Part shown: positions 24,288 to 56,763 of the stretch, piece after piece
Numbering within the stretch: the first letter of the stretch is position 1
How the letters are laid out: every line of letters begins with the position of its first letter
Source of the DNA: a virus
Length of the DNA: 64,000 nucleotides
IMG/VR virus record: IMGVR_UViG_3300045988_042533
Location: 30,905 to 94,904 of that record
Direction: 5' to 3' (one strand)
Notes under the pieces: generated by a model
Told to the model about the DNA's origin: nothing
Database searches by the model: none
What the model saw: the letters and a program-made list of their open reading frames with translations, nothing else
Position numbers and translations under genes: made by a program

Positions 24288-25646
24288 TTAATCAAATACT
24301 AAATCGTTAGCATTGAACTTATTATTAGTTGGCTTTGTTATACGCACAGTTCCATTAGTACCTTGTTGTCTGGATTTAAGTTTAAGGACTTTAACTTGAT
24401 TCTCCTTAATTGCCATATCAACAATATCTTTATAAGTACCACCTGTAAACAGAAGCCAATTATTAATCATATTCATTTCCACTTGCTTTTCAAATGGAAG
24501 TTTGTTGAACAACATTTCAGCAGCAGAACTATAAGCATTACCTTCTTCGTCACTAACAGGTCTAGAAACAAAGTTATAAAAGTCATCTAGATTAACTGTT
24601 ACTTTCTGACCATTAACTTCTTTAACGAAAGTTTCAGGAAGAGAATATTGACCAATAGTTCTACCTTTAATCAAATTGTTTATATAGTTATAATATTTAT
24701 TAGCACTCTCAATTTCAGCTTCTTCTTGAGCTTTAGCTTGCTGAGCCATTTGCTCACGAACTTGTTTATCTTTCTCTTGAAGAGCTTCAAGACAACTTTT
24801 AGCTTCATCATAAAGAGCACCACTATCTTTAAGATATTTAATATAATTCTCATTAACAGACTTATTACCAAACTCTTGAGCTGCCATAAGAATTATATTC
24901 TGCTGTTGAACTTCATTATCTTTATCAAGCTCAACTCCACTTCTATCAGGAACTTCACCAAAACCTTTAGCATTACCATGTATAGTAATATAATCAATAA
25001 ATGACTTAACTAGAGGATTATCATTATAAATTCTAGTATAAGCAGCTTGTTCAGCCTCAGCATAAGAATTAGCAATTACATCACTAACATAAGCTTTTAT
25101 TCCATTAACATCATCTGTATATTCAATAGGATTACCATCTTCTCCTGTTATCTCAAGACCAACAGCTTTCTGAATATTAGCAAGGTTAAGTTCTGTATCA
25201 TCACCCTCTTCAACTTCAAGAGATTTAATCCAATCTTGAACATCAGCGGCAGCTTTAAATACATTGTTGTTTGCATCAACCAAATCACCGTTTTCAGCAA
25301 CAGTATAAACTTGACCATCAAATTCAACTTGAGAACCAACTTCTAGCTCCCCCGTAGAAGTATCTTGGTTGCCATTATCTCCATGCTGTTGTTGACCTTG
25401 TTGTTGTTGACCTTGGTTGCCATTATCACCACCATTGTTATCACCATTATTGTTATTATCTGGCTGACTAACTGGAGGATTTGTTGGAGGAGGTGTAGGC
25501 TGATTGTTATTCTGAGCATTAATATCAGCAGCTCCATTATTACCTCCGTTAATATCGGGAGCATTCATAGGATTCTTATCATTTGGTGCAGCTTGACCAC
25601 CATTATTAGAAGGTTGCTGATTTGTACCATCAAAATCTATCTCCAT
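24288..25646 (-). CDS. Scaffold-like / internal head protein (452 aa)
   Basis: Q/N/G/P-rich disordered N-terminus, then a coiled-coil stretch (QEKDKQVREQMAQQAKAQEEAEIES). Sits between portal and MCP. Confidence 0.4.
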   Translation of the reverse strand: MEIDFDGTNQQPSNNGGQAAPNDKNPMNAPDINGGNNGAADINAQNNNQPTPPPTNPPVSQPDNNNNGDNNGGDNGNQGQQQQGQQQHGDNGNQDTSTGELEVGSQVEFDGQVYTVAENGDLVDANNNVFKAAADVQDWIKSLEVEEGDDTELNLANIQKAVGLEITGEDGNPIEYTDDVNGIKAYVSDVIANSYAEAEQAAYTRIYNDNPLVKSFIDYITIHGNAKGFGEVPDRSGVELDKDNEVQQQNIILMAAQEFGNKSVNENYIKYLKDSGALYDEAKSCLEALQEKDKQVREQMAQQAKAQEEAEIESANKYYNYINNLIKGRTIGQYSLPETFVKEVNGQKVTVNLDDFYNFVSRPVSDEEGNAYSSAAEMLFNKLPFEKQVEMNMINNWLLFTGGTYKDIVDMAIKENQVKVLKLKSRQQGTNGTVRITKPTNNKFNANDLVFD

Positions 25647-26000
25647 AATTAATTAATTTTTTAGTTAAACAATAATTTGATTATTTATATTAAGTGCAAA
25701 GTTATATACATTATTTATATATGCAATAACTGTTTTATCTTTAGCTAGAAGATTATGAGTTAAATAAGTACTTGTACTAGTATCAATATTACTTAATACT
25801 CTCAAACGATTATAAGCAGGTTCATCACTTAATCATCAAATCTATTTGCTGACAGCAGGCTTCCTCATGAACAAACACTGCCGTAGACCAACTTCTTTTT
25901 AGCTCTGTGCCACTCAATATATTTAGATGATAGATTAATCCACTTTGATATTTAACACGCTTAAATCGTGTTTTCAAAATATTAGTTTTCGTACTATAAT

Positions 26001-26044
26001 GACAAAAATAATCCCCAACCGTAGTTTCACAACTAAGTTGGGGA
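26001..26044 (-). terminator. Rho-independent terminator after the portal gene
   Basis: - strand stem TCCCCAAC/GTTGGGGA (8 bp), followed by TTATTTTTG. Confidence 0.75.
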
Positions 26045-26081
26045 ATAAACACATCTTTAATAATATTATCGCAACTATGGT

Positions 26082-28505
26082 TTATTTATCATATCTATTC
26101 TTATTAGTCTTAGCTATCTTTAAATCATTCTTCATTTGTTCACGTTTAACTTGTCTATCAGCAGCAGCATTATATGTATCAAGAGCTAAACGTTGACGTT
26201 CAAGACCAAGTTTAGATTGTTCAATCTGTTGTTTAATTTGGTCTCTACTTCTTTCAAGATTCATTCTAGCTTCATTATCATTGGCTGGAGTACTATCTGT
26301 TAAAGCTGCCATATCAACATCAATATATTTAGATTGAAGTTCATACTGAGCTTTAAGCATTTCAGTCTTTCTATCTTCTTCACCTTTAGCTTGAATCTCA
26401 CGAATCTTATTCTGAACTTCTTCTTCTTTAATTTGAAGCTCCATTTGCTTCATTTGTTCTTCATGCTGTTGTTTAATAGCAGTAAATTTATTAATAGCAT
26501 CTTTTATCTTAGAAACATTATCACCTGTTATAGCAGCCATAGCCATATCAAGGTCACCATTTTGTGCAGCACTAAATGCCCATTGACGAAGTTGTTGAAG
26601 TTTATCTATTTCTTTACTATCATTACGAACAGTAGTTGCAAAATCAGAAGAAATAAAAGAATTGACATCAACTGAAATAAATCTTTGTTTACCTGTTTCA
26701 TCTAAATATGAAGTATTAAGTCCATCTATAAATGCAAGTTTTGCATAATCCAAATCTCTATTATAATCTATTCTACGATAATCATCAAATGTTTGAGTTA
26801 TAATAACAGAACCCATTGCAGATTGAGAAATAGCTTGTTGAGTAGTATTAGCTCCAGCTGATTGAGTAATTTGACCATAACGTTGAGCGTTCATATCAAC
26901 CATTTCTCTAGCTTCAAGTTTAATACTTTCCATAAGATTAGTAAGCTCTGTAATATATTGACCCATATTAGCATTAAGCAAACGAACTTGTTGCATCTTA
27001 ACACCACTTACATCTTCTTCATCATCAACAGGTAGAGTTCCTGTAGCTTCTAATCTATAAAGAGCATCTTCAGGATTAGCTAGAAGAGATTTAGGATACA
27101 TAAGTACAAGCATCTTATTTTTAGCTATTACCATTTCACGATGATAACTAATTATATTACGAAGTACTTGGAAAGGAGTAATTGTTTCTATAATACTAAA
27201 TTTACCCATAAATGGTAGAACTTCCATAATACCATTATAAGGAAGCTTTCCATTACGATTGAAAGCTATAGGTCTAGCTTTAATTGGATAAACAGCATTA
27301 TACCTATTACCAATTCTATATCCTTCATAAACTTGAATCTCATATTCCCATTCAATATCTATATCTCCTGCTTCAGGATTAAGTTGATAATCTTCTTCAA
27401 CAACTCTTTGTGTTTTGAAACCTATCTCATTAACATAAGTAAGAATACCTCTTCTAGCCCAACCTTTCCATACAACATGCCATACTTCATAAAGTTGAGT
27501 ATTAACGTCATAAGGACTTAGATTATTATTCTTAAAGAACTCTCTTTCTTCTTTACTAAACTTATCACAAATGTCAGCATAATAACCTTTATAATTATCA
27601 TACTTTAGAAGTCTAGTAGATTGAGGAGTATATATAGATTTATCATAATATTCTTCTAGAAAAGCTCTATCTTTATCACTCAAATCTTTATCAAACATTT
27701 CAAGTATTTGATTGTAAGACATCATAATCTTTCTAGCAAACATATCATGGTCTTCAACAAAGAACTTATTATTTGGAATAGGATAAGCTTCAACTACAGG
27801 AACAGTTTCTTTAACAATCTTATTATCTCTAATTTCACTATAACTATAACATTCACCTAAAGCGCAGAAGTTGAAGAAGTTTGTAAGATATATCTGATTA
27901 TCTTCTGTAATAGCTCTTACATAATCAAGAACATCTTGACCTTGTTTAGATTGTTCATCAATATAATCTTGATTAAACTTCTCCATAAACTCCTTCTCGT
28001 CAGGCATAGCATCTTGTGGATTAACTTGTTCAGGAGGAGTACCATTTTGAGCAGCTTGTTGTTGAAGCTGTTGAAGTCTTTTCTGAAACTCTTGTTGAAA
28101 AGCTAGTTGAGCTTGTTGTCCAACAGCTTGTTTAAGTTTCATATCATGATTGATTACAACTTCAGGACTACAACTACCAACACTAAATTGATGAACACCT
28201 TTGAAATATTCACTAATATAACGTCTTACAATATCAGACATTATATCTAGATTCCTCATAACAGCAGGAAAACGTTTATACTTTTCCTTAGTAGCATTAT
28301 AAGGATTAAGAGTTTTACGATAAAACTCATTTGGAATATTGCCATGAAGGATGTTAAGTTTTGTCTCAACATCCGTTCTATCATTCATACTCAAACCTAG
28401 ACTAATGATATAATCAATAGAATTAGCATACCATTCAGCTTTAGCTTTAGTAGCAGCATCTACTTTTTGTCTAGGAAATTGAAAACTAAATTTACTTCCG
28501 TACAT
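26082..28505 (-). CDS. Portal protein (807 aa)
   Basis: Large ORF immediately downstream of the large terminase. Long charged coiled-coil C-terminus. Assignment rests on synteny. Confidence 0.6.
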   Translation of the reverse strand: MYGSKFSFQFPRQKVDAATKAKAEWYANSIDYIISLGLSMNDRTDVETKLNILHGNIPNEFYRKTLNPYNATKEKYKRFPAVMRNLDIMSDIVRRYISEYFKGVHQFSVGSCSPEVVINHDMKLKQAVGQQAQLAFQQEFQKRLQQLQQQAAQNGTPPEQVNPQDAMPDEKEFMEKFNQDYIDEQSKQGQDVLDYVRAITEDNQIYLTNFFNFCALGECYSYSEIRDNKIVKETVPVVEAYPIPNNKFFVEDHDMFARKIMMSYNQILEMFDKDLSDKDRAFLEEYYDKSIYTPQSTRLLKYDNYKGYYADICDKFSKEEREFFKNNNLSPYDVNTQLYEVWHVVWKGWARRGILTYVNEIGFKTQRVVEEDYQLNPEAGDIDIEWEYEIQVYEGYRIGNRYNAVYPIKARPIAFNRNGKLPYNGIMEVLPFMGKFSIIETITPFQVLRNIISYHREMVIAKNKMLVLMYPKSLLANPEDALYRLEATGTLPVDDEEDVSGVKMQQVRLLNANMGQYITELTNLMESIKLEAREMVDMNAQRYGQITQSAGANTTQQAISQSAMGSVIITQTFDDYRRIDYNRDLDYAKLAFIDGLNTSYLDETGKQRFISVDVNSFISSDFATTVRNDSKEIDKLQQLRQWAFSAAQNGDLDMAMAAITGDNVSKIKDAINKFTAIKQQHEEQMKQMELQIKEEEVQNKIREIQAKGEEDRKTEMLKAQYELQSKYIDVDMAALTDSTPANDNEARMNLERSRDQIKQQIEQSKLGLERQRLALDTYNAAADRQVKREQMKNDLKIAKTNKNRYDK

Positions 28506-30818: not shown

Positions 30819-30820
30819 AC

Positions 30821-31180
30821 CTACAATATACTTATAATAAACAAAATGATAGATGCTGCACCAGCAACACCTATCACATTTCTTTGTTTAGTAACTTTAT
30901 TAACCTTAGTTTTAAGTTGAACTATAGTTTTATCATTATCAGCTATAATGCAACTATCATTATGAACTATATTTCTAAGAACCTTATTAGCTTCTTTTTC
31001 ATATTTAAGTTCCACTAATTTACCATTTACTATACGTAAATCATCAATAGAAACACTAACTGAATCTTGATTAACTAGCTCCCCCGTAGAAGATATGTAT
31101 TGATTACTCCCTGATAAGTCTATAGAACAACTTAACAGTACTATCATCGTCAAGTGTTTTAACTTCAATAACTTTCGCAT
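30821..31180 (-). CDS. Lipoprotein with C-terminal TM anchor (unimolecular-spanin-like architecture)
   Basis: Signal plus lipobox MIVLLSC, and C-terminal TM VIGVAGAASIILFIISIL. Overlaps the upstream gene by 77 nt in another frame. Carries the GC-rich motif in frame (SSTGEL). Confidence 0.5.
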   Translation of the reverse strand: MRKLLKLKHLTMIVLLSCSIDLSGSNQYISSTGELVNQDSVSVSIDDLRIVNGKLVELKYEKEANKVLRNIVHNDSCIIADNDKTIVQLKTKVNKVTKQRNVIGVAGAASIILFIISIL

Positions 31181-31373
31181 TTTTAATACTATCTAAATTA
31201 TCAACTTTAATTTTTAAACTATCATTATACTTTTGTAGTTCAATCTTAGTTTCAATAATATGGTTATTCTTTTTATAATAGTAATCACCAATAATTATAG
31301 AAGCACAAAGAACAACTACAAGAATTATAAATACTGTACAACCTTTATTAATTTCATTACTAAAAAAATCCAT
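31104..31373 (-). CDS. Single-TM small protein (holin or i-spanin candidate)
   Basis: N-terminal TM CTVFIILVVVLCASIIIG followed by a charged coiled-coil-like tail. Its ATG overlaps the endolysin stop (TAATG). Confidence 0.5.
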   Translation of the reverse strand: MDFFSNEINKGCTVFIILVVVLCASIIIGDYYYKKNNHIIETKIELQKYNDSLKIKVDNLDSIKNAKVIEVKTLDDDSTVKLFYRLIRE

Positions 31374-32986: not shown

Positions 32987-33598
32987 TTAATAATTACTAG
33001 CATCCATTGAACTTAATACAGCATTACCACCTCTAGCAACTTCAGTTTCTTTTTCATACATAAGATTCTGTTTAGCTTCTTCTAGTTTTTTAATTATACT
33101 AGGAAGCTCACTAGCTTTCTTATTAACATTATCAACCATTCCTAGAATGTTTGGTAAATCGTCAAGAGTAAGACCTGATTGAAGTTTTTCATTAAGAATA
33201 CTATTAATAGCATCAACTGATAGATTTATATTATGAATACCTTTTTGAATATTCTCAACAACTTTACCAGCTTCAGTTATATTTTGATAATAATATCTTT
33301 TAATTATCTTTTGAACAAGTTCATCAGGAATATAATCATCTTTAAGACCTGCTTGTTGAATAGCCATTTTCAATGATTCAGCATCACTAAGTCCACTTTG
33401 TTTAGCAGGAGATTTAGGGTCTCCAAGATAATAAATAACTATACACTCTTTGATATAATTAGATTTATCTTTAGTTTTATCTCTAGTGTATAATTGCTTA
33501 ATATCTTTATCCATTAATTGACGAATAGTTGGAGCAACAGGCATACCACTATCATCAATCACTAACATCTTATCTATTATTAAATCAACACTAATCAT
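32987..33598 (-). CDS. Hypothetical protein (203 aa)
   Basis: ORF track. 4-nt overlap with the upstream gene. Confidence 0.6.
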   Translation of the reverse strand: MISVDLIIDKMLVIDDSGMPVAPTIRQLMDKDIKQLYTRDKTKDKSNYIKECIVIYYLGDPKSPAKQSGLSDAESLKMAIQQAGLKDDYIPDELVQKIIKRYYYQNITEAGKVVENIQKGIHNINLSVDAINSILNEKLQSGLTLDDLPNILGMVDNVNKKASELPSIIKKLEEAKQNLMYEKETEVARGGNAVLSSMDASNY

Positions 33599-34086
33599 AC
33601 AGGTTCAATAGTTTCTTCAATACAAGTAAAAGTTCTAAAGAAATACATCATAAGACGTGCATAAGATTCACCATAGTTTTCAACATAATAATTATAAAGC
33701 TTTCTATTATCTGTAATAGACATAGAAACTAGATAATTATAATGTCTAAGATACTTATTCTCAACAAGATTATCAATAACAAGCTTCTTACGAAACATAA
33801 CATATTCTTGTTTGCTCATAGTTTTCTCAGCTTGTCTTACAACATCAATGTTATCTATAATGGCTTTCTTATTTTCATTATATCTAATAGTACCTATAAA
33901 AGGTAGACTTGTCCATCTACCTTCTTTGATAAAATTAGAAGCATCTAGCTCTAGTTGTTTAATTAAATCTAAAGCTATTTCCTTATCTATAATGTTATCA
34001 TCAATAGTTTCTAGAACATCTTCTTTTCTAACTATTGTAACATCATAGCCTCTAGGAAACTTTCTAGTACTCTTATCACTTGACAT
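33595..34086 (-). CDS. Hypothetical protein (163 aa)
   Basis: ORF track. The GC-rich motif lies 34 nt upstream of the ATG. Confidence 0.6.
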   Translation of the reverse strand: MSSDKSTRKFPRGYDVTIVRKEDVLETIDDNIIDKEIALDLIKQLELDASNFIKEGRWTSLPFIGTIRYNENKKAIIDNIDVVRQAEKTMSKQEYVMFRKKLVIDNLVENKYLRHYNYLVSMSITDNRKLYNYYVENYGESYARLMMYFFRTFTCIEETIEPV

Positions 34087-34106: not shown

Positions 34107-34685
34107 TTACTTATCTAGCTCCCCCGTAGAAGAAGTATGGATGAATGTCAAATTACTACTACTACGTTCACTTTTTAGCCTATCATTAACTCTAAATCTA
34201 TGTCCATGAATATAACTATTAGGAACTACTTTAAAACTAACAAAGCAAGCTTTATCTTGAATCAAAATACTATCTTTATAAATAGTAGGGTTCTCATTAA
34301 CAATAGCAAGGAAATAATTAATATCCAAAACATTGTCTTCTCCAGCTACAGTTTGACTAATAGCTATATCACTACCTGTCATAATAAGTTTATCTCCAAG
34401 ATGAAGACCTGCTACAAACTCCTTAGCACTAGTACCTACTGCTGTTTTAATAAACAAAGGAATACACATACTAGTTCCATTATTCTTCTTTTTAGCATTT
34501 GAAATAATAACAGAAGGAGTTTCTTTACAAACAAGAGCAATCAGAGAATAATTAGGAGCTACTAGAATAGAAGTAGTTTTGTCAACTAAATACTCAAGAG
34601 GAATCTCACTAAGTTTAGTAGGAAGATTGTATTCTAACTCTACATTCTTACCTGTAACATCTTTGCTAAGTTTAAATTTAATCAT
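34107..34685 (-). CDS. Hypothetical protein, first gene of the leftward arm (192 aa)
   Basis: ORF track. The C-terminal residues SSTGELDK are encoded by the GC-rich motif at 34117-34132. Confidence 0.6.
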   Translation of the reverse strand: MIKFKLSKDVTGKNVELEYNLPTKLSEIPLEYLVDKTTSILVAPNYSLIALVCKETPSVIISNAKKKNNGTSMCIPLFIKTAVGTSAKEFVAGLHLGDKLIMTGSDIAISQTVAGEDNVLDINYFLAIVNENPTIYKDSILIQDKACFVSFKVVPNSYIHGHRFRVNDRLKSERSSSNLTFIHTSSTGELDK

Positions 34686-35420: not shown

Positions 35421-35460
35421 TTGCCCTAAAGTTAATGATACTAGACATAATAAATATAGT

Positions 35461-35567
35461 AGCTCCCCCGTAGAAGAAATGTATGATGAATAAACTCTTG
35501 CTAGTTATAATTAGTTATACTAGTCAAAGAGTGAATTATATCATAATCCCTTCTACGGGGGAGTTAG
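35461..35567. repeat. Inverted pair of the GC-rich motif (~105-nt imperfect hairpin) at the divergence point
   Basis: CTCCCCCGTAGAAG (35463-35476) / CTTCTACGGGGGAG (35550-35563). Inner pairings are TATGAT/ATCATA, ACTCTT/AAGAGT and CTAGT/ACTAG. Confidence 0.8.
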
Positions 35568-40470: not shown

Positions 40471-40566
40471 CAACGTATATCTTCTAGCAAGTGTAGTTTA
40501 TACTACGGCTTATGGTGCGAAACCAGCTAGAAGAACTAAAGTAGAAGATAATATAACTCATAACCT

Positions 40567-40584
40567 CTTCTACGGGGGAGTTAG
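40567..40584 (+). promoter_or_regulatory. GC-rich motif copy (CTTCTACGGGGGAGTTAG), 65 nt upstream of ATG 40650
   Basis: Co-oriented with the rightward genes. Follows a 9-bp hairpin (40480-40488/40526-40534). Confidence 0.4.
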
Positions 40585-40955: not shown

Positions 40956-41427
40956 TAAACCTAAAGCTAAACCTAAACGTTTAAATAGTAAAACTAGCAC
41001 CCCCGTAGAAGAATGTTATAAGCGTGTATCTCTACTTGTTGTTGGTACTGTTGTTTATAAAGATAATTCTTATTATGCTCATATATCTAAAGATGATTTA
41101 GATGGTAGATTATATCCTAATTCTACTATACCTATTGAAATCAAAGATTATGAGATTCCTTTTACTGATGATAGTTACAATCTTAGATATAGAAATGTTA
41201 TATTTGAACGTGGTAAAAAGCTTGTATGTTATATATTAAGTTTGTTTACTGCTTCGATTAATAGTTCTTATTCTGATAGATATGTACCTTTTAGTCCTAA
41301 TTGGTATATAATTGGAAATATTGTAAGTAATGGTACTAAACTTAAATTTGAATTTAAACGTTTAGGTAATCGAATTGATATTAATGAAAGAATTAAAAAA
41401 GATGATATAAATGATTATGAAGAATGA
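40915..41427 (+). CDS. Hypothetical protein (170 aa)
   Basis: ORF track. 41-nt overlap with the previous ORF. Carries an antisense copy of the GC-rich motif (STPVEEC). Confidence 0.5.
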   Translation: MMEIRGLKLKLKVNKPKAKPKRLNSKTSTPVEECYKRVSLLVVGTVVYKDNSYYAHISKDDLDGRLYPNSTIPIEIKDYEIPFTDDSYNLRYRNVIFERGKKLVCYILSLFTASINSSYSDRYVPFSPNWYIIGNIVSNGTKLKFEFKRLGNRIDINERIKKDDINDYEE

Positions 41428-43283: not shown

Positions 43284-43631
43284 ATGAGTAAACGTAGAAA
43301 TAAATCTAAGAGTAATATTCCTAATCCTTATAGACTTAGGATTGATGAAGTTAAATATAACATTAATGATAAACGTATAGAATGTGTTATTAGATATGTT
43401 AATCCTATAACAAACAATTTACAAATATCTAAAGGTGTTGCTAATTGTAATCCTAAAGATGTATTTGATGTTGAAGTAGGTAAACATTTGGCTGAAGGAA
43501 GAGCTAAATACAACATGTATAGAGGATATAGAGAATACATAGATAATATGATGAATGATGTATTCATTAAATATGATAAACTTCTTAAAAGAGAAGCTGT
43601 GCATATCCAATATATTATAAATGAGTTGTAG
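43284..43631 (+). CDS. Hypothetical protein (115 aa)
   Basis: ORF track. The KGVANCNPKDVFDVEVGKHLAEGRA motif is common in small phage proteins of unknown function (from memory). Confidence 0.55.
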   Translation: MSKRRNKSKSNIPNPYRLRIDEVKYNINDKRIECVIRYVNPITNNLQISKGVANCNPKDVFDVEVGKHLAEGRAKYNMYRGYREYIDNMMNDVFIKYDKLLKREAVHIQYIINEL

Positions 43632-44169
43632 TAAGTGTCCTCTTAGGATGTTCAATAATAAGTGTTATAATCTACAACCTGTAGGTAATCCTCTGTATGG
43701 AAATGCTATTGTAGTTCCTAATGTAGATTATAACGCTTATAAGAACAAAGGAATGAGTTTTAGTAAGTATGTAGAAGTGATTAAAGACATAATATCTTCT
43801 ACGGGGGAGCTAGATGATTATTATGTTATTCCTCTTATACGTTGCAGACTTGCTAAAGAATGTCCTATAAATAGTGAAATATTAACTAATTGTTCTGCTT
43901 ATTTTGTTAGAGAAATAGCAAAATATAAACTTAGACATGTAATGCTTCTTGGTGATGCTGCTAAGTTTTGGCTTAACATAGATAATATAGGTTCTTATAC
44001 AGATTCTGTTATATGTGATTCTAAAACTAGAACTATATATAATGTTTCTTACTCTCCTTTTGTTAAATACATAGATGATAACAAATTTGAAGATTTCAAA
44101 GGTCATCTAATTAAATGGTATAATAGTATTAAAACAGGTATTTATGATTATGATATTATTAATATATGA
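43621..44169 (+). CDS. Uracil-DNA glycosylase family-4-like protein with divergent catalytic motifs
   Basis: Order CSKCPL ... GNAIVVPNVD ... YVIPLIRCRL ... CSAYFVREI...HVMLLGDAA ... VSYSPF parallels the family-4 UDG order CxxCxL / GExPG / N.vkCRP / C..fl / LG..A / HPS. GExPG and HPS themselves are replaced. Lies adjacent to the DNA polymerase. Confidence 0.5.
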   Translation: MSCSKCPLRMFNNKCYNLQPVGNPLYGNAIVVPNVDYNAYKNKGMSFSKYVEVIKDIISSTGELDDYYVIPLIRCRLAKECPINSEILTNCSAYFVREIAKYKLRHVMLLGDAAKFWLNIDNIGSYTDSVICDSKTRTIYNVSYSPFVKYIDDNKFEDFKGHLIKWYNSIKTGIYDYDIINI

Positions 44170-46442
44170 TTCGTAGTTGGGCTTATGATGTAGAGATATT
44201 TCCTAATTTATTTAGTATTACTTTTGTTAATCTTCAAGATTATCTTAAAGTATTTGCTGATTGTGGAACTGATGCTCTAACAGATAAATATAAAGTAAGT
44301 GAAATTAAAGATAAACTTGAAACAGTAGAAAGTAGAATATTTTATATAAGTGATACTGATGATTCTCAAATCCTTAAACTAGTTTCTTTTATAAATGATA
44401 TGGAAGCTAGATTTGATGATAATGGTAATCCTATTAGATATGACTTATTTGGATATAATAATCAAGCTTATGATGATATGATGATTAAAGCTTTTCTTAT
44501 GAACTTTAATCGTTATGATTCTTCTACATCTCTCATAAAGTATCTTTATGAATTAAGTAAAAAACTTATTTCTCTGCAAGATGATAAATCCGCATTATGG
44601 GCTGATAAAGAACTTGATTATATACGTAAGTTTAGACTTCCGTATGCTACTGTAGATTTGTTTAAAGTTTATGCTTTAAATAGTGCTGGAGTAAATATAG
44701 ATAAAGATGGTAATAGAAATAAATTTGGTAAAAGTCTAAAGATGGTTTCTATTAATCTTAAATGGCATGAACTATTAGATTTTACATTACCTCCTATTGA
44801 TGAAGGAGAAGCTGAAATTTATAGAAAGAAACCTAATTATAGAGGATTTAGTATTGAACAACTTAATGCTTTATATACTAATGACTTTGATAGATATGTT
44901 CTTCCTAAATATGTAGAGCCTATGCTTCATTATAATAAGAATGATGTTTATTTAGTATGTGAAATAGCAAGACAAAAACCTGAAGAAATAAAACTTAGAT
45001 ATAGTCTTGGTCATGCTTTTAATCTTAATCTATTGTGTAGTGCTAGAAGTAATATAGCTGATAGACTTTTATATAAGTTCTACTCTGAAATGAGTGGACT
45101 TAAAGTTGAAGCTTTTAAGAAACTTAGAACTGAACGTACTCGTCTTAGTTTTAATAAAATTATATTTCCTCATATATGCTTTAAAACAAAGCAACTTCAA
45201 GATATTCTTGAAGATATGAAACAAATATATATTTATCATACTAATAAAGATGCGTTTTGTAAAGAGTTTACTTTTTATGATACTACTTATACTTTAGCAA
45301 CTGGTGGACTTCATAGTCAAGATAGACCTGATGAACTGAAAAGCGTTGAAGGTAAATATACTTATATTCATTATGATATAAGTAGCTTTTACCCAAGTGT
45401 TATGGTTGCTTATAATATAGCACCTAAACATCTTAACCAACGTATATTTACGAAAATGGTTGATTATTTTAGAGTAACACGTATTAAATGTAAACATACA
45501 GCAGATGAAGTAGAACAATTTATCAAAGGCGTTCACAATAAGCTTAGTGCTGAAGCACTTAAAATTGTTATTAATGCTATATATGGTAAGTTTGGCTTTG
45601 CTGATTACTTCCTCTATGATAGGTTTGCTCAAATGCAAGTTACTATTAATGGTCAACTTATGGTTCTAATGGTTATTGAAGCTCTTGAACTTAATGGTAT
45701 TCATGTTGTATCAGCTAATACTGATGGTATAATTGTCAAATTACCAATAGATAAAGAAGAAGATTTTAAACGTATAACTAGTGAATGGTGCGCTCAAAAT
45801 AAACTTGAAGCGGATAGTGAACGTTATAAACTTTTTGTTGCTAGAGATATTAATAATTATGTCAATAAACAACAGAATAATAAACTTGAATATAAAGGTG
45901 CTCTAGACCCTAAACAATATATTAAAGATTTGAAGAAGGGTTATGATATGCCTATTGTAGCTAAAGCTGTTTGTGATTATTTTCTTAATGGAACTCCTGT
46001 TATAGATACATTAAAGTCTCATAATAATATTCTTGATTTTTGTAAAACTCAGAATGTTGGAAAGCAATTTGATGTAGTTTATGATAGAGTTATTAATGGT
46101 GAAGTTAGGACTATAGAAAGTCAACGTCATGTTAGATTTTATGTTAGTCTTAATGGTGTCATAATATATAAGAAACATAAAACAACTGAAGCTAAATCTG
46201 TTCTAGCTAGTGGATTACCAGTTACTATTCTTAATAGTTTAGATGATAAACCTATTGAGGAAAGAGGTATAGATTATAAGTATTATTATAATGAAGCTTA
46301 TAAGATTATAAATCCTATAAAACTTGGTATATCTCCTAATAGAAAAGGTGATAGTAATAAGAAACTTCTTAGTGGAAAAGTTATGCTTAAACGTAACTTT
46401 GGTTTGTATAATAGTTTATTTGATGATGAAACTAATGAATAA
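44166..46442 (+). CDS. Family B DNA polymerase with 3'-5' exonuclease domain
   Basis: Exo I YDVEIFPN, Exo II NNQAYDDMM, Exo III YNKNDVYL. Pol motif A DISSFYPSVM (DxxSLYPS), motif B KIVINAIYGKFG (KxxxNSxYG), motif C SANTDGI (DTDS-like). Confidence 0.85.
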   Translation: MIRSWAYDVEIFPNLFSITFVNLQDYLKVFADCGTDALTDKYKVSEIKDKLETVESRIFYISDTDDSQILKLVSFINDMEARFDDNGNPIRYDLFGYNNQAYDDMMIKAFLMNFNRYDSSTSLIKYLYELSKKLISLQDDKSALWADKELDYIRKFRLPYATVDLFKVYALNSAGVNIDKDGNRNKFGKSLKMVSINLKWHELLDFTLPPIDEGEAEIYRKKPNYRGFSIEQLNALYTNDFDRYVLPKYVEPMLHYNKNDVYLVCEIARQKPEEIKLRYSLGHAFNLNLLCSARSNIADRLLYKFYSEMSGLKVEAFKKLRTERTRLSFNKIIFPHICFKTKQLQDILEDMKQIYIYHTNKDAFCKEFTFYDTTYTLATGGLHSQDRPDELKSVEGKYTYIHYDISSFYPSVMVAYNIAPKHLNQRIFTKMVDYFRVTRIKCKHTADEVEQFIKGVHNKLSAEALKIVINAIYGKFGFADYFLYDRFAQMQVTINGQLMVLMVIEALELNGIHVVSANTDGIIVKLPIDKEEDFKRITSEWCAQNKLEADSERYKLFVARDINNYVNKQQNNKLEYKGALDPKQYIKDLKKGYDMPIVAKAVCDYFLNGTPVIDTLKSHNNILDFCKTQNVGKQFDVVYDRVINGEVRTIESQRHVRFYVSLNGVIIYKKHKTTEAKSVLASGLPVTILNSLDDKPIEERGIDYKYYYNEAYKIINPIKLGISPNRKGDSNKKLLSGKVMLKRNFGLYNSLFDDETNE

Positions 46443-46451: not shown

Positions 46452-47861
46452 ATGATTGAAACAGAACTATTTAATGTTGCTGTTAATCAATGGAGAGATA
46501 AAAAAGGTATTGGTACTATGATTTGTCCTAAACCTCTTGATTGTTCTATTCCTTTGATAACAGTATTATCAAATGTACTAACTCGTAGTCCTACTGCTAA
46601 TATATTAATATTAGTAGATGGATTTACTGATAGACTTGAAGTTGTTAATAAGTTTAAAGAATTAAACGATAAAGGAGAAACACTTCTTCTTTCTAAGTTT
46701 AATGATAAACATATTTCTATTTATAGTCAAGATTATAATGATGGTCATGAAAGACAAACTAATGTTTTTCTAACTATATGTTATAAAACTAATACTATAA
46801 GTGAAAGTACTTATACAACTTTATATCTTAGTAGATTTAAACTTGTTATTATAGATAAAGTTTTAGATAATAAATCTATGACTTATTTATCTAAAGTTTG
46901 TCCTACTCTTGATACATTTAGACAACAAGAACTCGATGCAGTTCGCATTAACACCCCCGTAGAAGAATTATTGATACCTTTACGTCTTGATTCTGACTCT
47001 GAAGATGCTAAACTTCTAGATAAATATAACAAAGAAATTTCTACATCTATAAATATATTTGGAAGTTTCGATGTTATGAATGAAGCAAGAATAGGTAATA
47101 GTAAAACTAATACTTCTGCTTTGGATGTATGTAATCGAATTGCTAAAGATAATGGTTGGGATTTAAATCTTGATATGAGTATTGAACTTAATCGTGAAAT
47201 TGATAAGTATTATAATCCAATCGCTATTAATGATAGAGCTTCTAAAACATTTGAATTAATTCGTCTTAGAAGTAATCTTCTTAGTGATAACAACATAAAA
47301 CTTAAAGAAATTAATGATATAGTTGAAGAAAATAAAGATAAGAAAATTCTAATCATTAATAAACGTGGAGAATTTGCTTCTGATGTAACTAACTATCTTA
47401 ATACACTTAATGATAAAGATATATGCGGAAATTATCATGATAAAGTTGAAAACGTTATAGCTATAGATGATAACGGTAATATTATTTATTATAAAAGTGG
47501 TGCTAAGAAAGGACTTCCTAAATATTTAGGTGTTACAAGTCAAAAGAAACAATCTCAACGTAATTTCAATCTTAACAAGATTAATGTACTATCTACTTCT
47601 AATTCTCCTGATAAAGATTTAGATATTGATGTAGATGTTGTCATTATAACAAGTCCTTTGTGTGAGGATATACGTTCTTATTTGTATCGTATGAGCAATC
47701 TAAACGTGTCTAATCCATTGAAACTATATACCTTATATATAAAGGGTACTATGGAAGAAAAACGTATAGAAGAAAGAAAATATGATAGATATAGAACTGT
47801 GTCTACAAAAGAAATTGATGTTGATATTGAAAATAATGATGATTGTGTTGTTGTAGATTAA
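46452..47861 (+). CDS. Replication-module protein, possibly a degenerate SF2 helicase-like ATPase (469 aa)
   Basis: No clean Walker A. LVIIDKV (motif II-like) and KINVLSTSNSPDKDLDIDVDVVIITSP (helicase-C-like) are suggestive only. Confidence 0.3.
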   Translation: MIETELFNVAVNQWRDKKGIGTMICPKPLDCSIPLITVLSNVLTRSPTANILILVDGFTDRLEVVNKFKELNDKGETLLLSKFNDKHISIYSQDYNDGHERQTNVFLTICYKTNTISESTYTTLYLSRFKLVIIDKVLDNKSMTYLSKVCPTLDTFRQQELDAVRINTPVEELLIPLRLDSDSEDAKLLDKYNKEISTSINIFGSFDVMNEARIGNSKTNTSALDVCNRIAKDNGWDLNLDMSIELNREIDKYYNPIAINDRASKTFELIRLRSNLLSDNNIKLKEINDIVEENKDKKILIINKRGEFASDVTNYLNTLNDKDICGNYHDKVENVIAIDDNGNIIYYKSGAKKGLPKYLGVTSQKKQSQRNFNLNKINVLSTSNSPDKDLDIDVDVVIITSPLCEDIRSYLYRMSNLNVSNPLKLYTLYIKGTMEEKRIEERKYDRYRTVSTKEIDVDIENNDDCVVVD

Positions 47862-47911
47862 AATAATGTTTGTATATTTGCAATGTAAAACAAAACAAGC
47901 TCTTTGATATA

Positions 47912-50864: not shown

Positions 50865-52091
50865 ATGTATAAAAGAACTCCTAATACGTCTAAACTAACT
50901 AAAGCTTTTATTGAATCTAAAATATCTCAAGAAGCTATAGTTAGTAAATATCTTAATATACCTATGGAAGTTGTTCAAGATTGTATCAATCATGGACATC
51001 TAATCAAATCTGTATTTCGTGATGATGATTATAATAAATCTATGGGTATTATATATAACAGAAAAGGAAGACTTAAAGTTCGAGATTTTGGTGGTTTTGG
51101 ATTTTTTGATGATGTATATGGAGTTGTAGCTTATGTATTATCTAATATTTATGATAGACCTATAAGTACTGACAATAAGCAAGATTTTTATTTTGTTCTT
51201 AAACATATAGCTAGTACTTTTTCTGATAATATTGAAGGTAAAGTTATTGATGAAAATGTTGATGAAGATATTGTCAAAGCTTTATCTAAAGGAAGAAGTA
51301 AGAAAGCTATAATAGAAATTGTTCCTAGACCTTGGAATCAACAAGATAAAGCTTATTGGAACTCTATTGGTATTAATCTCAATTTTCTTAATGCTAATTT
51401 TGTTATTCCTGTAGACCAATATTATATTAATCGTGTAACTAATTCAGACCCTAAATATCATTATAAAGAGTCTGACCCTTGTTATGCTTATATGCTTGGT
51501 CAAAATAAGCAAGGTATATATCTGATTAAACTTTATTTTCCTTATAGAGATAGAAGTAAAGAACTTAAATTTATTACTAATTGTAATGTACTTGAAGGAC
51601 TGCCTAATCTTGAAAGAAATGATTATGATTATATTATTATAACTAAATCAAGTAAAGATAGATTAAGTATAGGAAGTCATTTATCATCAACATTCTTCTA
51701 CGGGGGAGCTGGTGATAAACTTCATATAGGTGTCATAAATCTTCCTAGTGAAAATTATAAACTTAAAACTAATGAATATGAGTGGTTAAAGAATAAACTT
51801 AATAAAAATGGTCTTATTGTAAGTCTATTAGATTTTGATACTACAGGTAGATGTGGTGCTAAATATCTATACGATAATTATAATATACCTTATATCTTTA
51901 TTACTAGAGGTGAATTTGGTTTATATAATTATGGTGGTAAAGATTTTAGTGATTTACATAAATGTTATAGTATTAAACAACTTAATCAATTTATTAATGA
52001 AACGATAACCTATGCGGAAATCAAATTTAAAGCTGAAAATAGTCAAGTTTCCTATATGCAGAGACTATCAGAGTTTAATTTGCCGTACTAA
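50865..52091 (+). CDS. Putative primase / Toprim-like replication protein (408 aa)
   Basis: YIIITKSSKDRLSIG and LLDFDTTGRCG (DxD-type) are reminiscent of Toprim. No zinc finger seen. Position in the replication module. Confidence 0.3.
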   Translation: MYKRTPNTSKLTKAFIESKISQEAIVSKYLNIPMEVVQDCINHGHLIKSVFRDDDYNKSMGIIYNRKGRLKVRDFGGFGFFDDVYGVVAYVLSNIYDRPISTDNKQDFYFVLKHIASTFSDNIEGKVIDENVDEDIVKALSKGRSKKAIIEIVPRPWNQQDKAYWNSIGINLNFLNANFVIPVDQYYINRVTNSDPKYHYKESDPCYAYMLGQNKQGIYLIKLYFPYRDRSKELKFITNCNVLEGLPNLERNDYDYIIITKSSKDRLSIGSHLSSTFFYGGAGDKLHIGVINLPSENYKLKTNEYEWLKNKLNKNGLIVSLLDFDTTGRCGAKYLYDNYNIPYIFITRGEFGLYNYGGKDFSDLHKCYSIKQLNQFINETITYAEIKFKAENSQVSYMQRLSEFNLPY

Positions 52092-54102: not shown

Positions 54103-54108
54103 ATTAAT

Positions 54109-54468: not shown

Positions 54469-54520
54469 CACCCTCGTAGAAGAATGTTGATTGTTTGAAA
54501 ATGGCATGGTTTCTAGCTCA

Positions 54521-54620: not shown

Positions 54621-54636
54621 TCATATATTTGAAGAT

Positions 54637-56061
54637 ATGAAAAAGGCTATTAAAAAAGTAGGTGCTGAACCTAAAATTAAAAGAAAATTTTATAGAAACG
54701 AAGGATTTCATGTTGGAGTTCATCGTGATGAATGGGGATTATTTGATTCTAAACGTAATCCTTATTGTTTTGTTAATGGTTATTTCTTTACTTATGGAAA
54801 ATGGTTTATTCGTAATCATACTACTTTAGAAGATATTAAAAACTCTTGGGATGATTATTTTTATAATGGTAATATTTATAATGCTTGTTTTGGTATAATA
54901 GATAGAAAACGTAAGATTGCTGTTATTAAGGATGGTAATTATTATTCTTATTATTTAGAACATGCTGTTCCTGATAACTATACTATTTTACATGTTAACG
55001 AAATAAGAGATTTTGATATAACAAAACATCTTCATAAACTTTATACTGAACATTGTAAATATCTTATAGATAGATTTGTTAACCTTAACAGTGATTATTA
55101 TCATGTTGTAAATAATAATAGAGCTAAAGTTATATTTAAATCTAACTATCTTCAAGACCAAATAGATGATGTTGTATACAAACTTGAAAAAGTATCATCT
55201 GAACATAATATATCTAGAACAAAAGATTTATTTGCAGGTAAAGAGCATTTCCTAAATGTAAGTAAAGGCTGGACATCTAAATATATCAAAGTAAAACATC
55301 CTACAATTAATCAGATAATTACAAATACTGTTTTTACTGATGAACAAAAAGCTTATATTGAAAAATGTAAGCTTTACAGTGAATATCGTAGTAATGGTAT
55401 TGTTTGGAAAGATATTCTTACTAAAAGTAAGAAGGAGATTGTAGATAAAGTAGAACAAAAAGAAAGTGAATTTGATGTACGTTGGTCTAAAGCTATTGAA
55501 AGAGGTAAAGAAAATAGAGCAAAAGCTATAAAAGAAGCTAATTCTGAACAAACTCTAGAACAGTTTAGAAATGGTCATATACTTAATAATTATGTTACAT
55601 ATAAGTTCCCCCGTAGAGGACGTAACTTTAGTATACATTGGATGGATGAAATGACTAGAGCTAAATGTTTCAAAAATATTCAACTTAGACTGAATACTAC
55701 AAACAATATTATTACTACAAGTAATAATGCTTCTGTTGACTTATCACAAGCTATTACTCTATTTAATGTTTTGTATGATAAATATTTTAGTCATTATGAT
55801 TATACTAATACTGATGACTACTTTATTGATTTTACAAAAAGAAATATAAAGATAAACTATTATAATCTAAGACATATTTGTTTTACTGAAAAGAAAACTG
55901 ATAATGGTGAAAGATTAGGTTATATGGAATGGAAAATACAAATAGGATGTCATGCTCTTTGGCTTGATGATATTAAAGAATTTTGTAGATATTATCATCT
56001 TGAAGATAGAGTGCATTTTGATTGTAGTGCTAGAAATATTAATCAATTAACTAATAAATAA
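54637..56061 (+). CDS. Hypothetical protein (474 aa)
   Basis: ORF track. No motif assigned. The C-terminal WKIQIGCH...DDIKEF loosely resembles the C-terminus of 58084..58920. Confidence 0.6.
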   Translation: MKKAIKKVGAEPKIKRKFYRNEGFHVGVHRDEWGLFDSKRNPYCFVNGYFFTYGKWFIRNHTTLEDIKNSWDDYFYNGNIYNACFGIIDRKRKIAVIKDGNYYSYYLEHAVPDNYTILHVNEIRDFDITKHLHKLYTEHCKYLIDRFVNLNSDYYHVVNNNRAKVIFKSNYLQDQIDDVVYKLEKVSSEHNISRTKDLFAGKEHFLNVSKGWTSKYIKVKHPTINQIITNTVFTDEQKAYIEKCKLYSEYRSNGIVWKDILTKSKKEIVDKVEQKESEFDVRWSKAIERGKENRAKAIKEANSEQTLEQFRNGHILNNYVTYKFPRRGRNFSIHWMDEMTRAKCFKNIQLRLNTTNNIITTSNNASVDLSQAITLFNVLYDKYFSHYDYTNTDDYFIDFTKRNIKINYYNLRHICFTEKKTDNGERLGYMEWKIQIGCHALWLDDIKEFCRYYHLEDRVHFDCSARNINQLTNK

Positions 56062-56067
56062 ATAATT

Positions 56068-56763
56068 ATGGCTAGAAATAGAAAACCTAAAGAATCTGTT
56101 CAAATTCCTATTAAAGATAGAAAGTTAACAGATTGTGTTGATGAAAGTCTTGTAGATGAAAATGTATTATCATTTAGAGCTATTCAAGATAAACTTGTTA
56201 ATATCTATGCTAAGAAGAATCATGATTATGGTGATAGTTTCAATCAAGGTTGTAATGAACTTGGTGTAGGTTATGCTTTTAGTAGAATATTCGATAAAAC
56301 TAAAAGATTTCAAACTCTTGCTAAAGGTATTATGACTAATTCTCTTAGTATAGAAGTACAAGATGAAACTGTTGAAGATACTATTATGGATTTAGCTAAC
56401 TATTGTGTAATGTATCTTGCATGGAGGGATAAACATATTCATGTAGGAGAAGCAGAAGCTAAACATTTTTCTATAATAGAAGGAAGAGATAATCAAGTTG
56501 ATATAAAACATCCTTCTACGGGGGAGCTAGAATCTAATAATAATACTAATACTTATTATCATAAATTACATGATGAACTTTTTACTAATAAAGTTATATT
56601 ACTTCAAGTAGATAGTAGGAAAGATTGTACTAATCGAGTAACAAGTAAATACGGTTTTGATTTATTTAGAGATGAAAATGATTATGTTTACATCAAAAGT
56701 GTTACTGGTGAACTTATAGATGTAACTATTGATGGTGAATATGTTATATGTATTATACAATAA
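56068..56763 (+). CDS. DUF1599-like (all-alpha, MazG-related) N-terminal domain protein with an extra C-terminal domain
   Basis: KKNHDYGDSF...GYAFSRIFDKTKRF...VEDTIMDLANYCVMY follows the K.xDYG / R..DK..R / D...DL.NY pattern. The GC-rich motif (PSTGEL) sits at the domain junction (aa ~150). Confidence 0.5.
   Translation: MARNRKPKESVQIPIKDRKLTDCVDESLVDENVLSFRAIQDKLVNIYAKKNHDYGDSFNQGCNELGVGYAFSRIFDKTKRFQTLAKGIMTNSLSIEVQDETVEDTIMDLANYCVMYLAWRDKHIHVGEAEAKHFSIIEGRDNQVDIKHPSTGELESNNNTNTYYHKLHDELFTNKVILLQVDSRKDCTNRVTSKYGFDLFRDENDYVYIKSVTGELIDVTIDGEYVICIIQ

Follow-up and report, generated by a model that had tools for sequence, protein, structure and literature searches.

A short asymmetric DNA motif is repeated, on both strands and at rather even distances, in crAss-like phage genomes. 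It is described here from a stretch of 64,000 nucleotides of the IMG/VR virus record IMGVR_UViG_3300045988_042533 (positions 30,905 to 94,904 of that record; this whole stretch, about 70% of the whole genome, is called the window hereafter). The window belongs to a crAss-like phage of the Intestiviridae and is Obtuvirinae-like. The comparisons reported below show the motif to be, as far as comparison of sequences can tell, a cis-acting DNA signal which is phage-specific and under strong purifying selection, rather than a peptide, a gene for an RNA or an element that moves. The evenly spaced motif family points to an undescribed genome-wide signal that is read on the DNA rather than via the proteins: no description of any version of the motif, or of any interspersed repeat in crAss-like phages, was found in open-access papers and preprints, and repeats and promoters are unmentioned in Yutin 2021.

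The motif is by far the most repeated long word of the window, the G + C content of which is 28%. When up to two mismatches are allowed, the 15-mer TCTACGGGGGAGCTA matches the 64-kb window 17 times, whereas the expectation derived from 100 dinucleotide shuffles is 0.02. The heptamer ACGGGGG occurs 19 times and, with the exception of the occurrence at 36142, all are embedded in a common extended motif, yTCTTCTACGGGGG(A/T)GCTAg (n = 18). The consensus of 183 distinct instances, which are phylogenetically non-independent, gives a conserved unit of about 19-20 nucleotides, yTCTTCTACGGGGG(A>T)GCTA(g), of which TACGGGGG is an example of the short core. Nine of the 18 copies lie inside open reading frames (ORFs) and the remaining nine in non-coding gaps or in a doubtful small ORF; eight are outside all ORFs of at least 50 amino acids, while the non-coding share of the window is just 11.7% (P = 5e-4). 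Relative to the genes, 13 copies are sense and five are antisense. A first-pass annotation of this DNA, made from the letters alone, had noticed a motif of 15-20 nucleotides embedded in frame in at least eight unrelated proteins between positions 25345 and 56530. The repeat is real and its nine in-ORF copies, five read as STGEL, one as FFYGGAG, two as TPVEE and one as FPRRG, all stand at the places and in the readings reported. The unit, however, is about 19-20 nucleotides long, the range is too narrow, with copies also at 7847, 11779/11838, 19750 and 63526/63633, and the list of copies was incomplete, lacking nine (7847, 11779, 11838, 19750, 35471, 35555, 40572, 63526 and 63633).

Protein alignments indicate that selection acts on the nucleotides of the motif and not on the peptides, and that a peptide function is excluded, because the peptides follow each genome's version or frame of the motif at the same columns. 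In relatives less than 80% identical (about 70%), the 18-nucleotide core has 87% identity and the 120 bases flanking it 69%, and the CTTCTACGGGGG segment stays almost invariant even where the flanking alignment has insertions or deletions. In four proteins, which are only 30-70% identical between genera, orthologous copies fall in identical alignment columns. In the helicase, these columns read TPVEE in the window and cr271_1, RPVKE in cr8_1, LPVEE in p-crAssphage and SPIKE in crAss002, and the copy is antisense in all these orthologues. In the primase, where the copy is orthologous in all four other Intestiviridae genomes compared, four genomes read FYGG and crAss002 reads PLRGN, because the identical DNA word sits one base out of frame there. 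In the uracil-DNA glycosylase (UDG), with orthologous copies in cr271_1 and cr8_1, the reading is SSTGEL (STGEL in the window) versus PFTGGLE in cr8_1. In the pre-capsid protein, the copy stands at the junction of a disordered N/G/Q-rich N-terminal region and a conserved domain, and orthologous copies are found in cr271_1, crAss002 and p-crAssphage (shifted by 12 amino acids in the last) and in about 34 of 40 Obtuvirinae loci. The pre-capsid gene of cr8_1 has lost its copy, with PSTEK left in its place, and a copy on the other strand lies about 0.5 kb off in the portal/pre-capsid gap; in some genomes this opposite-strand gap copy replaces the one within the pre-capsid gene or accompanies it. 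Furthermore, the copy in a lipoprotein-like ORF is kept in 13 distant relatives despite surrounding insertions and deletions.

The suggestion of the first-pass annotation that selection at the nucleotide level overrides the protein sequence is thus well founded, since the core is kept in relatives of about 70% identity and the peptide tracks the version and the frame; that annotation left the choice between DNA and RNA level undecided, and the genome layout favours DNA. Conservation of the peptide for structural reasons in motif-free homologues, which had been considered as well, is not what is seen: neither the UDG of p-crAssphage, which reads SGRNNTEDV, nor Gp31 of crAss001, a pre-capsid homologue which reads SPKTNF, has the motif, and neither keeps the peptide. 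It had also been asked whether the peptide is an insertion or a replacement, and the alignments of the pre-capsid protein, UDG, primase and helicase contain no insertion at the motif site, so that the word has been written in place, replacing sequence. Three positions had been described as tolerant, and each is as described: the copy in ORF 30821-31180 is 12 residues past the lipobox Cys, that in ORF 34107-34685 is within the last eight codons, and that in ORF 56068-56763 is in a linker after the DUF1599 domain. Tolerance applies to these three and to the pre-capsid protein and UDG but not to the primase and helicase, where the copies sit in conserved segments (with the invariant G280 in the primase and the invariant P169 and E172 in the helicase). 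In addition, three genera show differences of one to three bases between their sense copies and their antisense copies, the purine being each time on the coding strand (A versus T at +9 in the window, G versus C in cr8_1, and ACG versus ATG in crAss002); these differences may be read as tolerated positions resolved by the composition of the coding strand.

The motif is one of a family common to the crAss-like phages of the Intestiviridae. An exact-pattern scan of IMG/VR gave 93 stretches with the motif, mostly crAss-like contigs of about 90 kb. As this set was chosen through the motif itself, a second set, independent of the motif, was fetched via the capsid protein; it comprises 40 Obtuvirinae loci of 15-21 kb and presents the same picture, with copies at conserved offsets. 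Each genus has its own version, which all 20-30 copies of one genome share, and other genera place their own version at the same gene positions. The version of cr271_1 (about 20 copies) is as in the window; those of the others are CATACCTTTTACGGGG(G/C)GGCTAGAG in cr8_1 (26-27 copies), tCCATCCTC(T/C)ACGGGG(A/G)GT in p-crAssphage (ZA isolate, MK238400.1, 30 copies) and aCTCCTTTA(C/T)GGGGGAA in crAss002 (NC_055828.1, 28 copies), or in short CCTTTTACGGGGSGGCT, CCATCCTCYACGGGGRGT and CTCCTTTAYGGGGGAA, respectively. Among the 40 Obtuvirinae loci there are more versions, such as ACAGGGG, ACAGGGCGGC, TCTTCTACAGGGGAG and ACCTTTTACAGGGCGGCTTT. The grammar common to all these versions is five to seven pyrimidines, an A, one base (Y or R) and a G-run. 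In crAss001 (MH675552.1, Steigviridae), there is no ACGGGG at all in the genome, and CTTCTGGAG occurs 27 times on both strands, 75-fold enriched, at sites from 1580 to 99103; judged by its letters (CTTCT...GGAG), it may be a short form of the same signal. A scan of 185,579 bacterial genomes with 17-mers gave chance singletons only, plus a few multi-hit contigs of 60-94 kb which are likely to be mis-binned phage contigs, so the motif is not a host repeat. One Obtuvirinae-like stretch, IMGVR_UViG_3300028797_000141, the capsid protein of which is 79% identical to that of the window, has at most one recognizable copy in 21 kb (10 kb to either side of the capsid gene) compared with three to five in its relatives; it may be a natural loss of the motif, of use for finding the gene of a reader.

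Some copies of p-crAssphage and crAss002 are followed, 3-8 nucleotides on, by GC-rich runs such as GGAGCGAAGCGGAGCGG, which contain GCGAAGC and repeated AGCGG/GAAGCGG. Such runs are found in p-crAssphage at 28309-28345 of locus L154 and at 96610-96650 of MK238400.1, and in crAss002 at 4215-4250 and 47845-47880 of locus L158 and at 86180-86217 of NC_055828.1. GCGAAGC stands at a fixed place after the copy in three of four cases in p-crAssphage and three of six in crAss002, and it is absent from the window. GCGAAGC is a very stable DNA mini-hairpin that is also present at phiX174-type origins, and AGCGG and GAAGCGG are the Chi sequences of Bacillus subtilis and Staphylococcus aureus.

The genome-wide layout was analysed in the four complete Intestiviridae genomes cr271_1, cr8_1, p-crAssphage and crAss002, with pairs closer than 300 nucleotides merged. 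With P values that treat copies as independent within a genome and the four related genomes as separate tests, the coefficient of variation of the gaps is 0.46-0.62, more even than random placement (P <0.0001 to 0.006); the mean gap is 3.6-5.5 kb and overall there is about one copy per 4 kb. Neighbouring copies change strand in 15/19, 22/26, 21/29 and 22/27 cases in the four genomes, which is above shuffles (P = 0.0005-0.012). Taken strand by strand, six of the eight single-strand series are even (coefficient of variation 0.32-0.44, P <= 0.002), with one copy per about 6-8 kb, and the alternation follows from this because two interleaved regular series alternate automatically. The CTTCTGGAG word of crAss001 also alternates (19 of 26, P = 0.003) and its spacing is marginally even. 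The tie to gene direction is weak: sense and antisense copies number 13:5 in the window, 12:8 in cr271_1, 13:14 in cr8_1, 18:12 in p-crAssphage and 15:13 in crAss002, that is, 71:52 over the five genomes (58% sense and 42% antisense), and intergenic copies in a larger, non-independent set divide 41:33. Moreover, copies lie on both strands within the virion-polymerase genes of 7-13 kb. Inverted pairs are found at a few conserved places: the strand switch of the window (35471/35555), upstream of a repL gene of p-crAssphage (96491/96610) and beside the DUF932 gene, where the pair is downstream in the window, cr271_1 and cr8_1 but upstream in p-crAssphage. Cassettes without homologues in the relatives, at 14.0-18.2 kb (14058-18217) and at 57.9-60 kb, overlap with the two longest stretches of the window that have no motif; the longest gap of all, from 11838 to 19750, spans the former. 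Since a copy can move to the other strand nearby, as in cr8_1, and since both copies are present in other genomes, the comparison shows, within what letters can tell, that position matters more than orientation. Such a layout speaks against a function of the peptides or a role as promoters, and also against RNA elements and mobile elements.

The 18 copies of the window are distributed over both gene blocks, minus-strand genes extending to about 34.7 kb and plus-strand genes beginning at about 36.2 kb, with the GC skew switching in the same region. From the left, the copy at 7836..7853 (minus strand) is sense and intergenic, the end of its G-run being 41 nucleotides upstream of the ATG of ORF 7123-7800. 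The copies at 11768..11785 (minus, a GGGGGTACTA variant, sense, upstream of ORF 11337-11741) and 11832..11849 (plus, a GGGGGTGTTG variant, antisense) are both intergenic and form the left and right arms of a long hairpin-capable inverted repeat. The copy at 19739..19756 (minus, sense) is in the short gap between ORFs 19780-20622 and 19099-19719, and relatives keep it at the same place. The copy at 25344..25361 (minus, sense) is in the pre-capsid gene 24288-25646 and is read STGEL, and that at 31076..31093 (minus, sense) is in the lipoprotein-like ORF 30821-31180, whose N-terminus is MRKLLKLKHLTMIVLLSC (MRKLL...LLSC), directly after the stop codon of ORF 31104-31373. The copy at 34116..34133 (minus, sense) gives the end STGELDK* of ORF 34107-34685, and its G-run ends 35 nucleotides before the ATG of ORF 33595-34086. 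At the strand switch, the copies at 35460..35477 (minus) and 35549..35566 (plus, in a doubtful ORF of 66 amino acids) form the left and right members of a divergent pair, the former pointing into the minus-strand gene block and the latter into the plus-strand block.

On the right-hand side, the copy at 40566..40583 (plus) is sense and intergenic, its G-run ending 72 nucleotides before the ATG of ORF 40650-40955, where the replication gene cluster starts, and that at 40995..41012 (minus, GGGGGTGCTA) is antisense in the basic, low-complexity N-terminus of ORF 40915-41427, read TPVEE. There follow copies in the UDG gene 43621-44169 (43795..43812, plus, sense, STGEL), in the helicase/ATPase gene 46452-47861 (46949..46966, minus, GGGGGTGTTA, antisense, TPVEE), in the primase gene 50865-52091 (51694..51711, plus, sense, FFYGGAG), in ORF 54637-56061 (55603..55620, minus, CCTCTACGGGGGAACTT, antisense, FPRRG) and in ORF 56068-56763 (56512..56529, plus, sense, STGEL), where a stretch of low complexity that follows the DUF1599 domain (residues 50-117) contains the copy. 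The last two copies, at 63515..63532 (minus, GGGGGTGTTA, antisense) and 63627..63644 (plus, CTCTACGGGGGAACTG, sense), are intergenic and constitute the divergent pair downstream of the DUF932 gene. The non-coding DNA after the last copy, at 63650-63800, contains two TCTACAACATTT and a perfect hairpin, AATAGGGTT-GGAGAT-AACCCTATT, and then another AACCCTATTTT.

As all copies of a genome share one version and change together across genera, a trans-acting reader that co-evolves with its sites is implied, most simply a phage protein. The signal would be strand-polar and would serve DNA replication, or recombination-dependent replication and repair, because each strand needs regular copies whatever the genes on it, as in a process that works on both strands and in both directions, which transcription, packaging and ejection would not require. 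In the form that we favour, the motif would be a specific start or loading site for a phage primase or primosome on single-stranded template: the strand carrying the motif would serve as template, synthesis would be initiated at the central CTA/TTA triplet (CTG in crAss001), copying of the pyrimidine tract would yield a short primer made of purines only, and the G-run with its 3' flank would be the lineage-specific recognition part. Where no intergenic gap was available at the right distance, the word would have been written into an ORF wherever tolerable, which would account for STGEL, FYGGAG and TPVEE in unrelated proteins. That the motif is a strand-polar replication or recombination signal of this kind, for example a priming or loading site, read by a co-evolving phage factor, is a tentative proposal, made with low confidence. 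Several findings speak for priming. A primase gene is present in all these phages (by annotation, with a weak relative in crAss001), 13 of the 18 window copies as against five are oriented toward the would-be lagging-strand template for forks leaving the switch at about 35.5 kb, and a divergent pair is located at that very switch. GCGAAGC follows a subset of copies in two genera, p-crAssphage and crAss002. The central triplets CTA/TTA, and CTG in crAss001, match the classic DnaG-type initiation triplets, which would make the pyrimidine tract the template of a short purine primer. Furthermore, Schmidtke et al. placed a predicted replication origin of p-crAssphage upstream of a repL gene in their own assembly (PMC10983915), which we suppose to be the site of the 96491/96610 pair in the ZA record.

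Other points weigh against this explanation. Known primases need just about three nucleotides, so a 19-nucleotide site would be unusual, and the match of the central triplets to those of DnaG may be a coincidence. The bias toward the lagging-strand template over five genomes is only 58%. No reader protein was found by BLAST comparison with the gene content of crAss001, which is too insensitive, or by Pfam and PHROG searches on neighbouring small ORFs, which were uninformative. The DnaG-type label of the primase is a database annotation, to which Pfam and PDB sequence searches added nothing, and a single-sequence AlphaFold model of the primase had a pLDDT of 37.7 and was unusable. In cr127_1 (NC_055886.1, Crevaviridae), there is a quite different GC-rich word of 30 nucleotides, ATGGCCACAAGGGCGAGAGGTGTTCCGAAAT, with ten copies (five plus and five minus, several of them paired, e.g., 11356, 11920, 28706, 28871, 42048 and 42232), so the grammar is not universal in the order. 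In addition, the concerted change of copies could come from gene conversion rather than from co-evolution with a reader, which is less likely. A link to archaeo-eukaryotic primases was considered and dropped, as relatives annotate the gene as DnaG family. The primase itself (ORF 50865-52091) carries SVFRDDDYNKSMGI in its N-terminus, at residues of about 45-65 (SPFREDTHPSFGF in p-crAssphage), which resembles the zinc-finger motif of DnaG, CPFHxEKTPSF, except that the Cys and His ligands are replaced; template recognition by the primase may be unusual if this likeness is real.

In its wider form, the replication reading would make the motif a kind of punctuation of the Crassvirales, namely a lineage-specific signal of 9-20 nucleotides, present on each strand every 6-8 kb or so, at which a phage reader starts or controls DNA synthesis or repair, and the need for which dictates residues in essential enzymes including the primase. 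This too is offered with low confidence. If true, it would possibly mean sequence-programmed priming in place of helicase-coupled random priming, in a system that spans the whole family containing the most abundant human gut virus.

Three other explanations fit the layout about as well and differ from the replication signal only in what the reader does. The copies might be Chi-like polar control sites or a "self" tag, at which a translocating helicase-nuclease or recombination machine, of the phage or of the host, changes its behaviour when the motif is correctly oriented; copies on both strands at regular distance would then protect broken ends, or start their repair, within a few kb. The motif is indeed asymmetric, G-rich, evenly spaced on both strands and weakly linked in orientation to gene direction, and the phages encode a superfamily 1 (SF1) RecD/Dda-like helicase, a PD-(D/E)XK exonuclease and a Gam-like protein, together with a RecT homologue according to the annotation of the cr271_1 and cr8_1 orthologues; the AGCGG/GAAGCGG runs after some p-crAssphage and crAss002 copies, which have the Chi sequences of Bacillus subtilis and Staphylococcus aureus, would fit as well. 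Known Chi sites, however, are 5-8 nucleotides long and set by the host enzyme, while the present motif is about 19 nucleotides long and varies with the phage genus, and it is not enriched in bacterial genomes at the 17-mer level. This explanation is regarded as unlikely. The copies do not behave as recombination hotspots in the one profile available: identity to IMG/VR contigs about 90% identical to the window (two, mutually identical where both cover) shows no block boundaries at the copies. Alternatively, a phage site-specific nicking enzyme might make single-strand breaks at the copies, on alternating strands of virion or replicating DNA. HNH endonuclease genes are annotated in these phages, and a role in replication or packaging would also be compatible with nicks, but the nick motifs of T5 and phiKMV lie on a single strand and are fewer. 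Those of the tf/Rembedalsseter group (WACTRTGAC), too, are on one strand only and unevenly spread, in contrast to both strands and even spacing here, although T5, the phiKMV group and this group are all nicked at a long asymmetric consensus conserved across relatives (PMC11780129). Moreover, a long-read study of p-crAssphage found pile-ups of read ends only at the terminal region (PMC10983915), which is weak evidence against nicks, since the DNA was possibly ligated; on balance we rate nicking sites as rather improbable. The copies might also be an architectural or packaging tag, i.e., binding sites for a protein that organizes, condenses or marks phage DNA, to be compared with the uptake sequences of Neisseria and Haemophilus. 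In favour of such a tag are a statistical anatomy like that of DNA uptake sequences (orientations, spacing, in-ORF frames, inverted pairs and dialects) and the absence of the motif from recently acquired, homologue-less cassettes (14058-18217 and 57.9-60 kb). Purely double-strand binding, however, gives no reason for the alternation, no candidate binding protein was found, and packaging signals are normally single, so that we allow this explanation a small chance.

The explanations in terms of transcription, RNA and transposition fit the layout less readily. Promoters, or some other signal by which an RNA polymerase or factor specific to the phage directs transcription, with a start at the G-run as in T7-type promoters, would agree with the length of about 20 nucleotides, the asymmetry and the genus-specific versions, the copies of one genome changing together. 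Of the 18 copies in the window, 13 are sense, the divergent pair at its strand switch faces both gene blocks, and the copies are over-represented in its non-coding DNA. In the larger set of intergenic copies, those that are sense end 11-66 nucleotides upstream of the next ATG. The crAss virion RNA polymerase uses single-stranded templates and its promoters are unknown (bioRxiv 10.1101/2020.03.07.982082). On the other hand, 42% of the copies in five genomes are antisense and intergenic copies split 41:33, copies inside giant genes are on both strands, even spacing and alternation are unexpected of promoters, and a nearby flip of strand occurs without loss of the copy. Transcription modules of crAss001 follow ORF orientation in stranded RNA-seq (PMC8375218), and in phi14:2 the early (virion polymerase) transcripts share no motif and the middle promoters are sigma-70-like. 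No single-subunit RNA polymerase came up when the window's ten largest ORFs were searched with Pfam, and the RNA polymerase annotated in cr271_1, cr8_1, p-crAssphage and crAss002 is the giant two-barrel virion polymerase only; inspection by eye downstream of intergenic copies revealed no consistent Bacteroides-type TTTG or TAnnTTTG box at a fixed distance. Promoters are, in our estimate, about as unlikely as Chi-like sites. An element acting in mRNA, such as a processing site, a protein-binding hairpin of pyrimidine tract and G-run with G-U pairs, or a translation signal, is very improbable. The motif strand can be folded into a G-U-rich hairpin of 5-7 bp with a 3-nucleotide loop, the pyrimidine swaps between versions all preserve pairing with G, and there are sense copies in 5' leaders; but the 42% antisense copies would be absent from mRNA, covariation is not seen beyond the invariant G-run (positions -5..-8 versus +9..+12), Rfam gave no family match in the window or p-crAssphage, and even spacing within 13-kb genes lacks an RNA rationale. 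The hairpin hypothesis was rejected, there being no covariation outside the invariant part and the predicted folds being inconsistent between copies. A miniature mobile element, or a homing footprint, that inserts in frame into genes is hardly credible and is already largely refuted: many copies on both strands and a few inverted pairs resembling terminal inverted repeats or REPIN-like doublets would suit it, but there is no insertion compared with homologues, subfamilies with proteins only 30-50% identical have the motif at the same positions in their genes, the unit of about 19 nucleotides has no duplicated target, and the motif is absent from host genomes in the 17-mer bacterial scan.

The window itself was assigned from its gene content. 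Pfam search of its ORFs placed a Crass_capsid domain at 22782-24254, and the records closest to it, cr271_1, cr8_1, cr3_1 and ctcc615, share about 75% of nucleotides with it in structural genes; cr271_1 and cr8_1 are classified as Crassvirales, Intestiviridae, Obtuvirinae. In addition, most of the window is matched at about 90-95% identity by a 90,415-bp contig of IMG/VR. No tRNA was detected in the window. The non-coding gap of about 435 nucleotides between the portal and pre-capsid genes (25647-26081) is conserved in size, measuring 340-455 nucleotides in cr271_1, cr8_1, p-crAssphage and crAss002, and carries a motif copy in some genomes; a small RNA or a strong late promoter may be located there. 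ORF 8400-10544, with YadA-head repeats, has no homologue in the five phages compared, and homologues of the ORFs from 14058 to 17338 are absent from them as well; this ORF and the 14058-18217 region probably represent cassettes for tail fibres or host range that can be exchanged. At its N-terminus, ORF 59042-60082 carries a Tad3 domain (a Type I Thoeris inhibitor, E = 1e-20), and its neighbour, ORF 60066-60674, has a PI-PLC-X phospholipase domain; the cassette with these two ORFs, which lacks a motif copy as well as homologues in the five phages compared, is possibly an anti-defence island. The DUF1599 domain of ORF 56068-56763, after which a motif copy sits in the linker, is a "nucleotide modification associated domain 1" and hints at modification of phage DNA by the phage. 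The annotation of cr271_1 splits both the DNA polymerase and the SF1 helicase into two ORFs (record positions 83336-86033 and 86828-88293, the polymerase gap being 390 nucleotides), while their homologues in the window, at 44166-46442 and 41424-42899, are uninterrupted; introns or recoding may be responsible for the splits.

crAss-like phages are the most abundant human gut viruses, and their replication and genome handling are almost unknown. The motif is a testable handle that points to a sequence-specific factor. Cultured phages exist for such work, crAss002 having the motif family and crAss001 the shorter related word. Furthermore, the version of the motif is a quick marker of lineage, gaps in the pattern flag recently acquired cassettes, and gene callers and analyses of evolutionary rates should treat the motif codons as constrained by DNA and not by protein.

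Among known systems, the DNA uptake sequences, i.e., the uptake signal sequences (USS) of the Pasteurellaceae and the DNA uptake sequences (DUS) of the Neisseriaceae, are closest in statistical anatomy. These consist of a short asymmetric word with a longer weak consensus, and they occur in similar numbers on both strands, with even spacing, preferred frames in ORFs, inverted pairs in gaps and dialects matched to the receptor. The crAss motif is like them in having similar numbers in both orientations, even spacing, preferred frames, inverted gap pairs and lineage dialects. However, uptake sequences belong to bacterial chromosomes and natural transformation and occur about once per kb, whereas the crAss motif belongs to lytic or plasmid-like phages without uptake machinery and occurs about once per 4 kb. 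The REP, BIME and REPIN elements are likewise interspersed short GC-rich words with inverted gap pairs and a CTAC/GTAG-like core, but REP elements lie outside genes, are palindromic and differ in position from strain to strain, while half of the crAss motifs are in genes and the motif is non-palindromic and conserved in position across subfamilies. The promoters of T7, T3 and SP6 resemble the motif in being about 20 nucleotides long and asymmetric, with a pyrimidine-rich upstream part followed by a G-run, and in having a phage-specific version in all copies. These promoters all point with the genes and stand at gene boundaries, in contrast to the motif, which is 42% antisense and often deep in genes, and no T7-type polymerase gene was found in the crAss-like phages examined for one.

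Chi sites, which are read by RecBCD or AddAB, share with the motif that they are G-rich, asymmetric and polar, occur once per few kb and act on DNA ends whatever the genes; they are 5-8 nucleotides long, specified by the host enzyme and oriented with replication, whereas the crAss motif is about 19 nucleotides long and genus-specific and alternates between strands. Ordinary primase sites (the GTC type of T7) and single-strand initiation signals (the G4/phiX174 type) are strand-specific signals in the template, with a pyrimidine-containing triplet beside the copied stretch, and are needed on the discontinuously copied strand; GCGAAGC-type hairpins next to some crAss motif copies in two genera add to the likeness with the latter. 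The former are only 3-5 nucleotides long and frequent, and the latter are structured, 40-100 nucleotides long and present once or twice; to our knowledge, a 19-nucleotide site every 6-8 kb per strand has no precedent. Phage nick motifs (those of T5, of the phiKMV group, CGACNNNNNCCTACTCCGG, and of the tf/Rembedalsseter group, WACTRTGAC) are similarly long, asymmetric, conserved within a group, situated in genes and gaps, and of unknown function, but the last are on one strand, about 13 in number and clustered in one part of the genome (PMC11780129), as against 20-30 alternating and evenly spaced copies of the crAss motif. The motif is therefore not filed in any of the families tested, since it fails the T7-type promoters in orientation and polymerase, Chi in length and in host over-representation at the 17-mer level, the known nick motifs in their restriction to one strand, and MITE/REP elements in insertion and variable position. 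In possible mechanism, the closest analogues would be Chi sites, phage nick motifs and primase or single-strand initiation signals.

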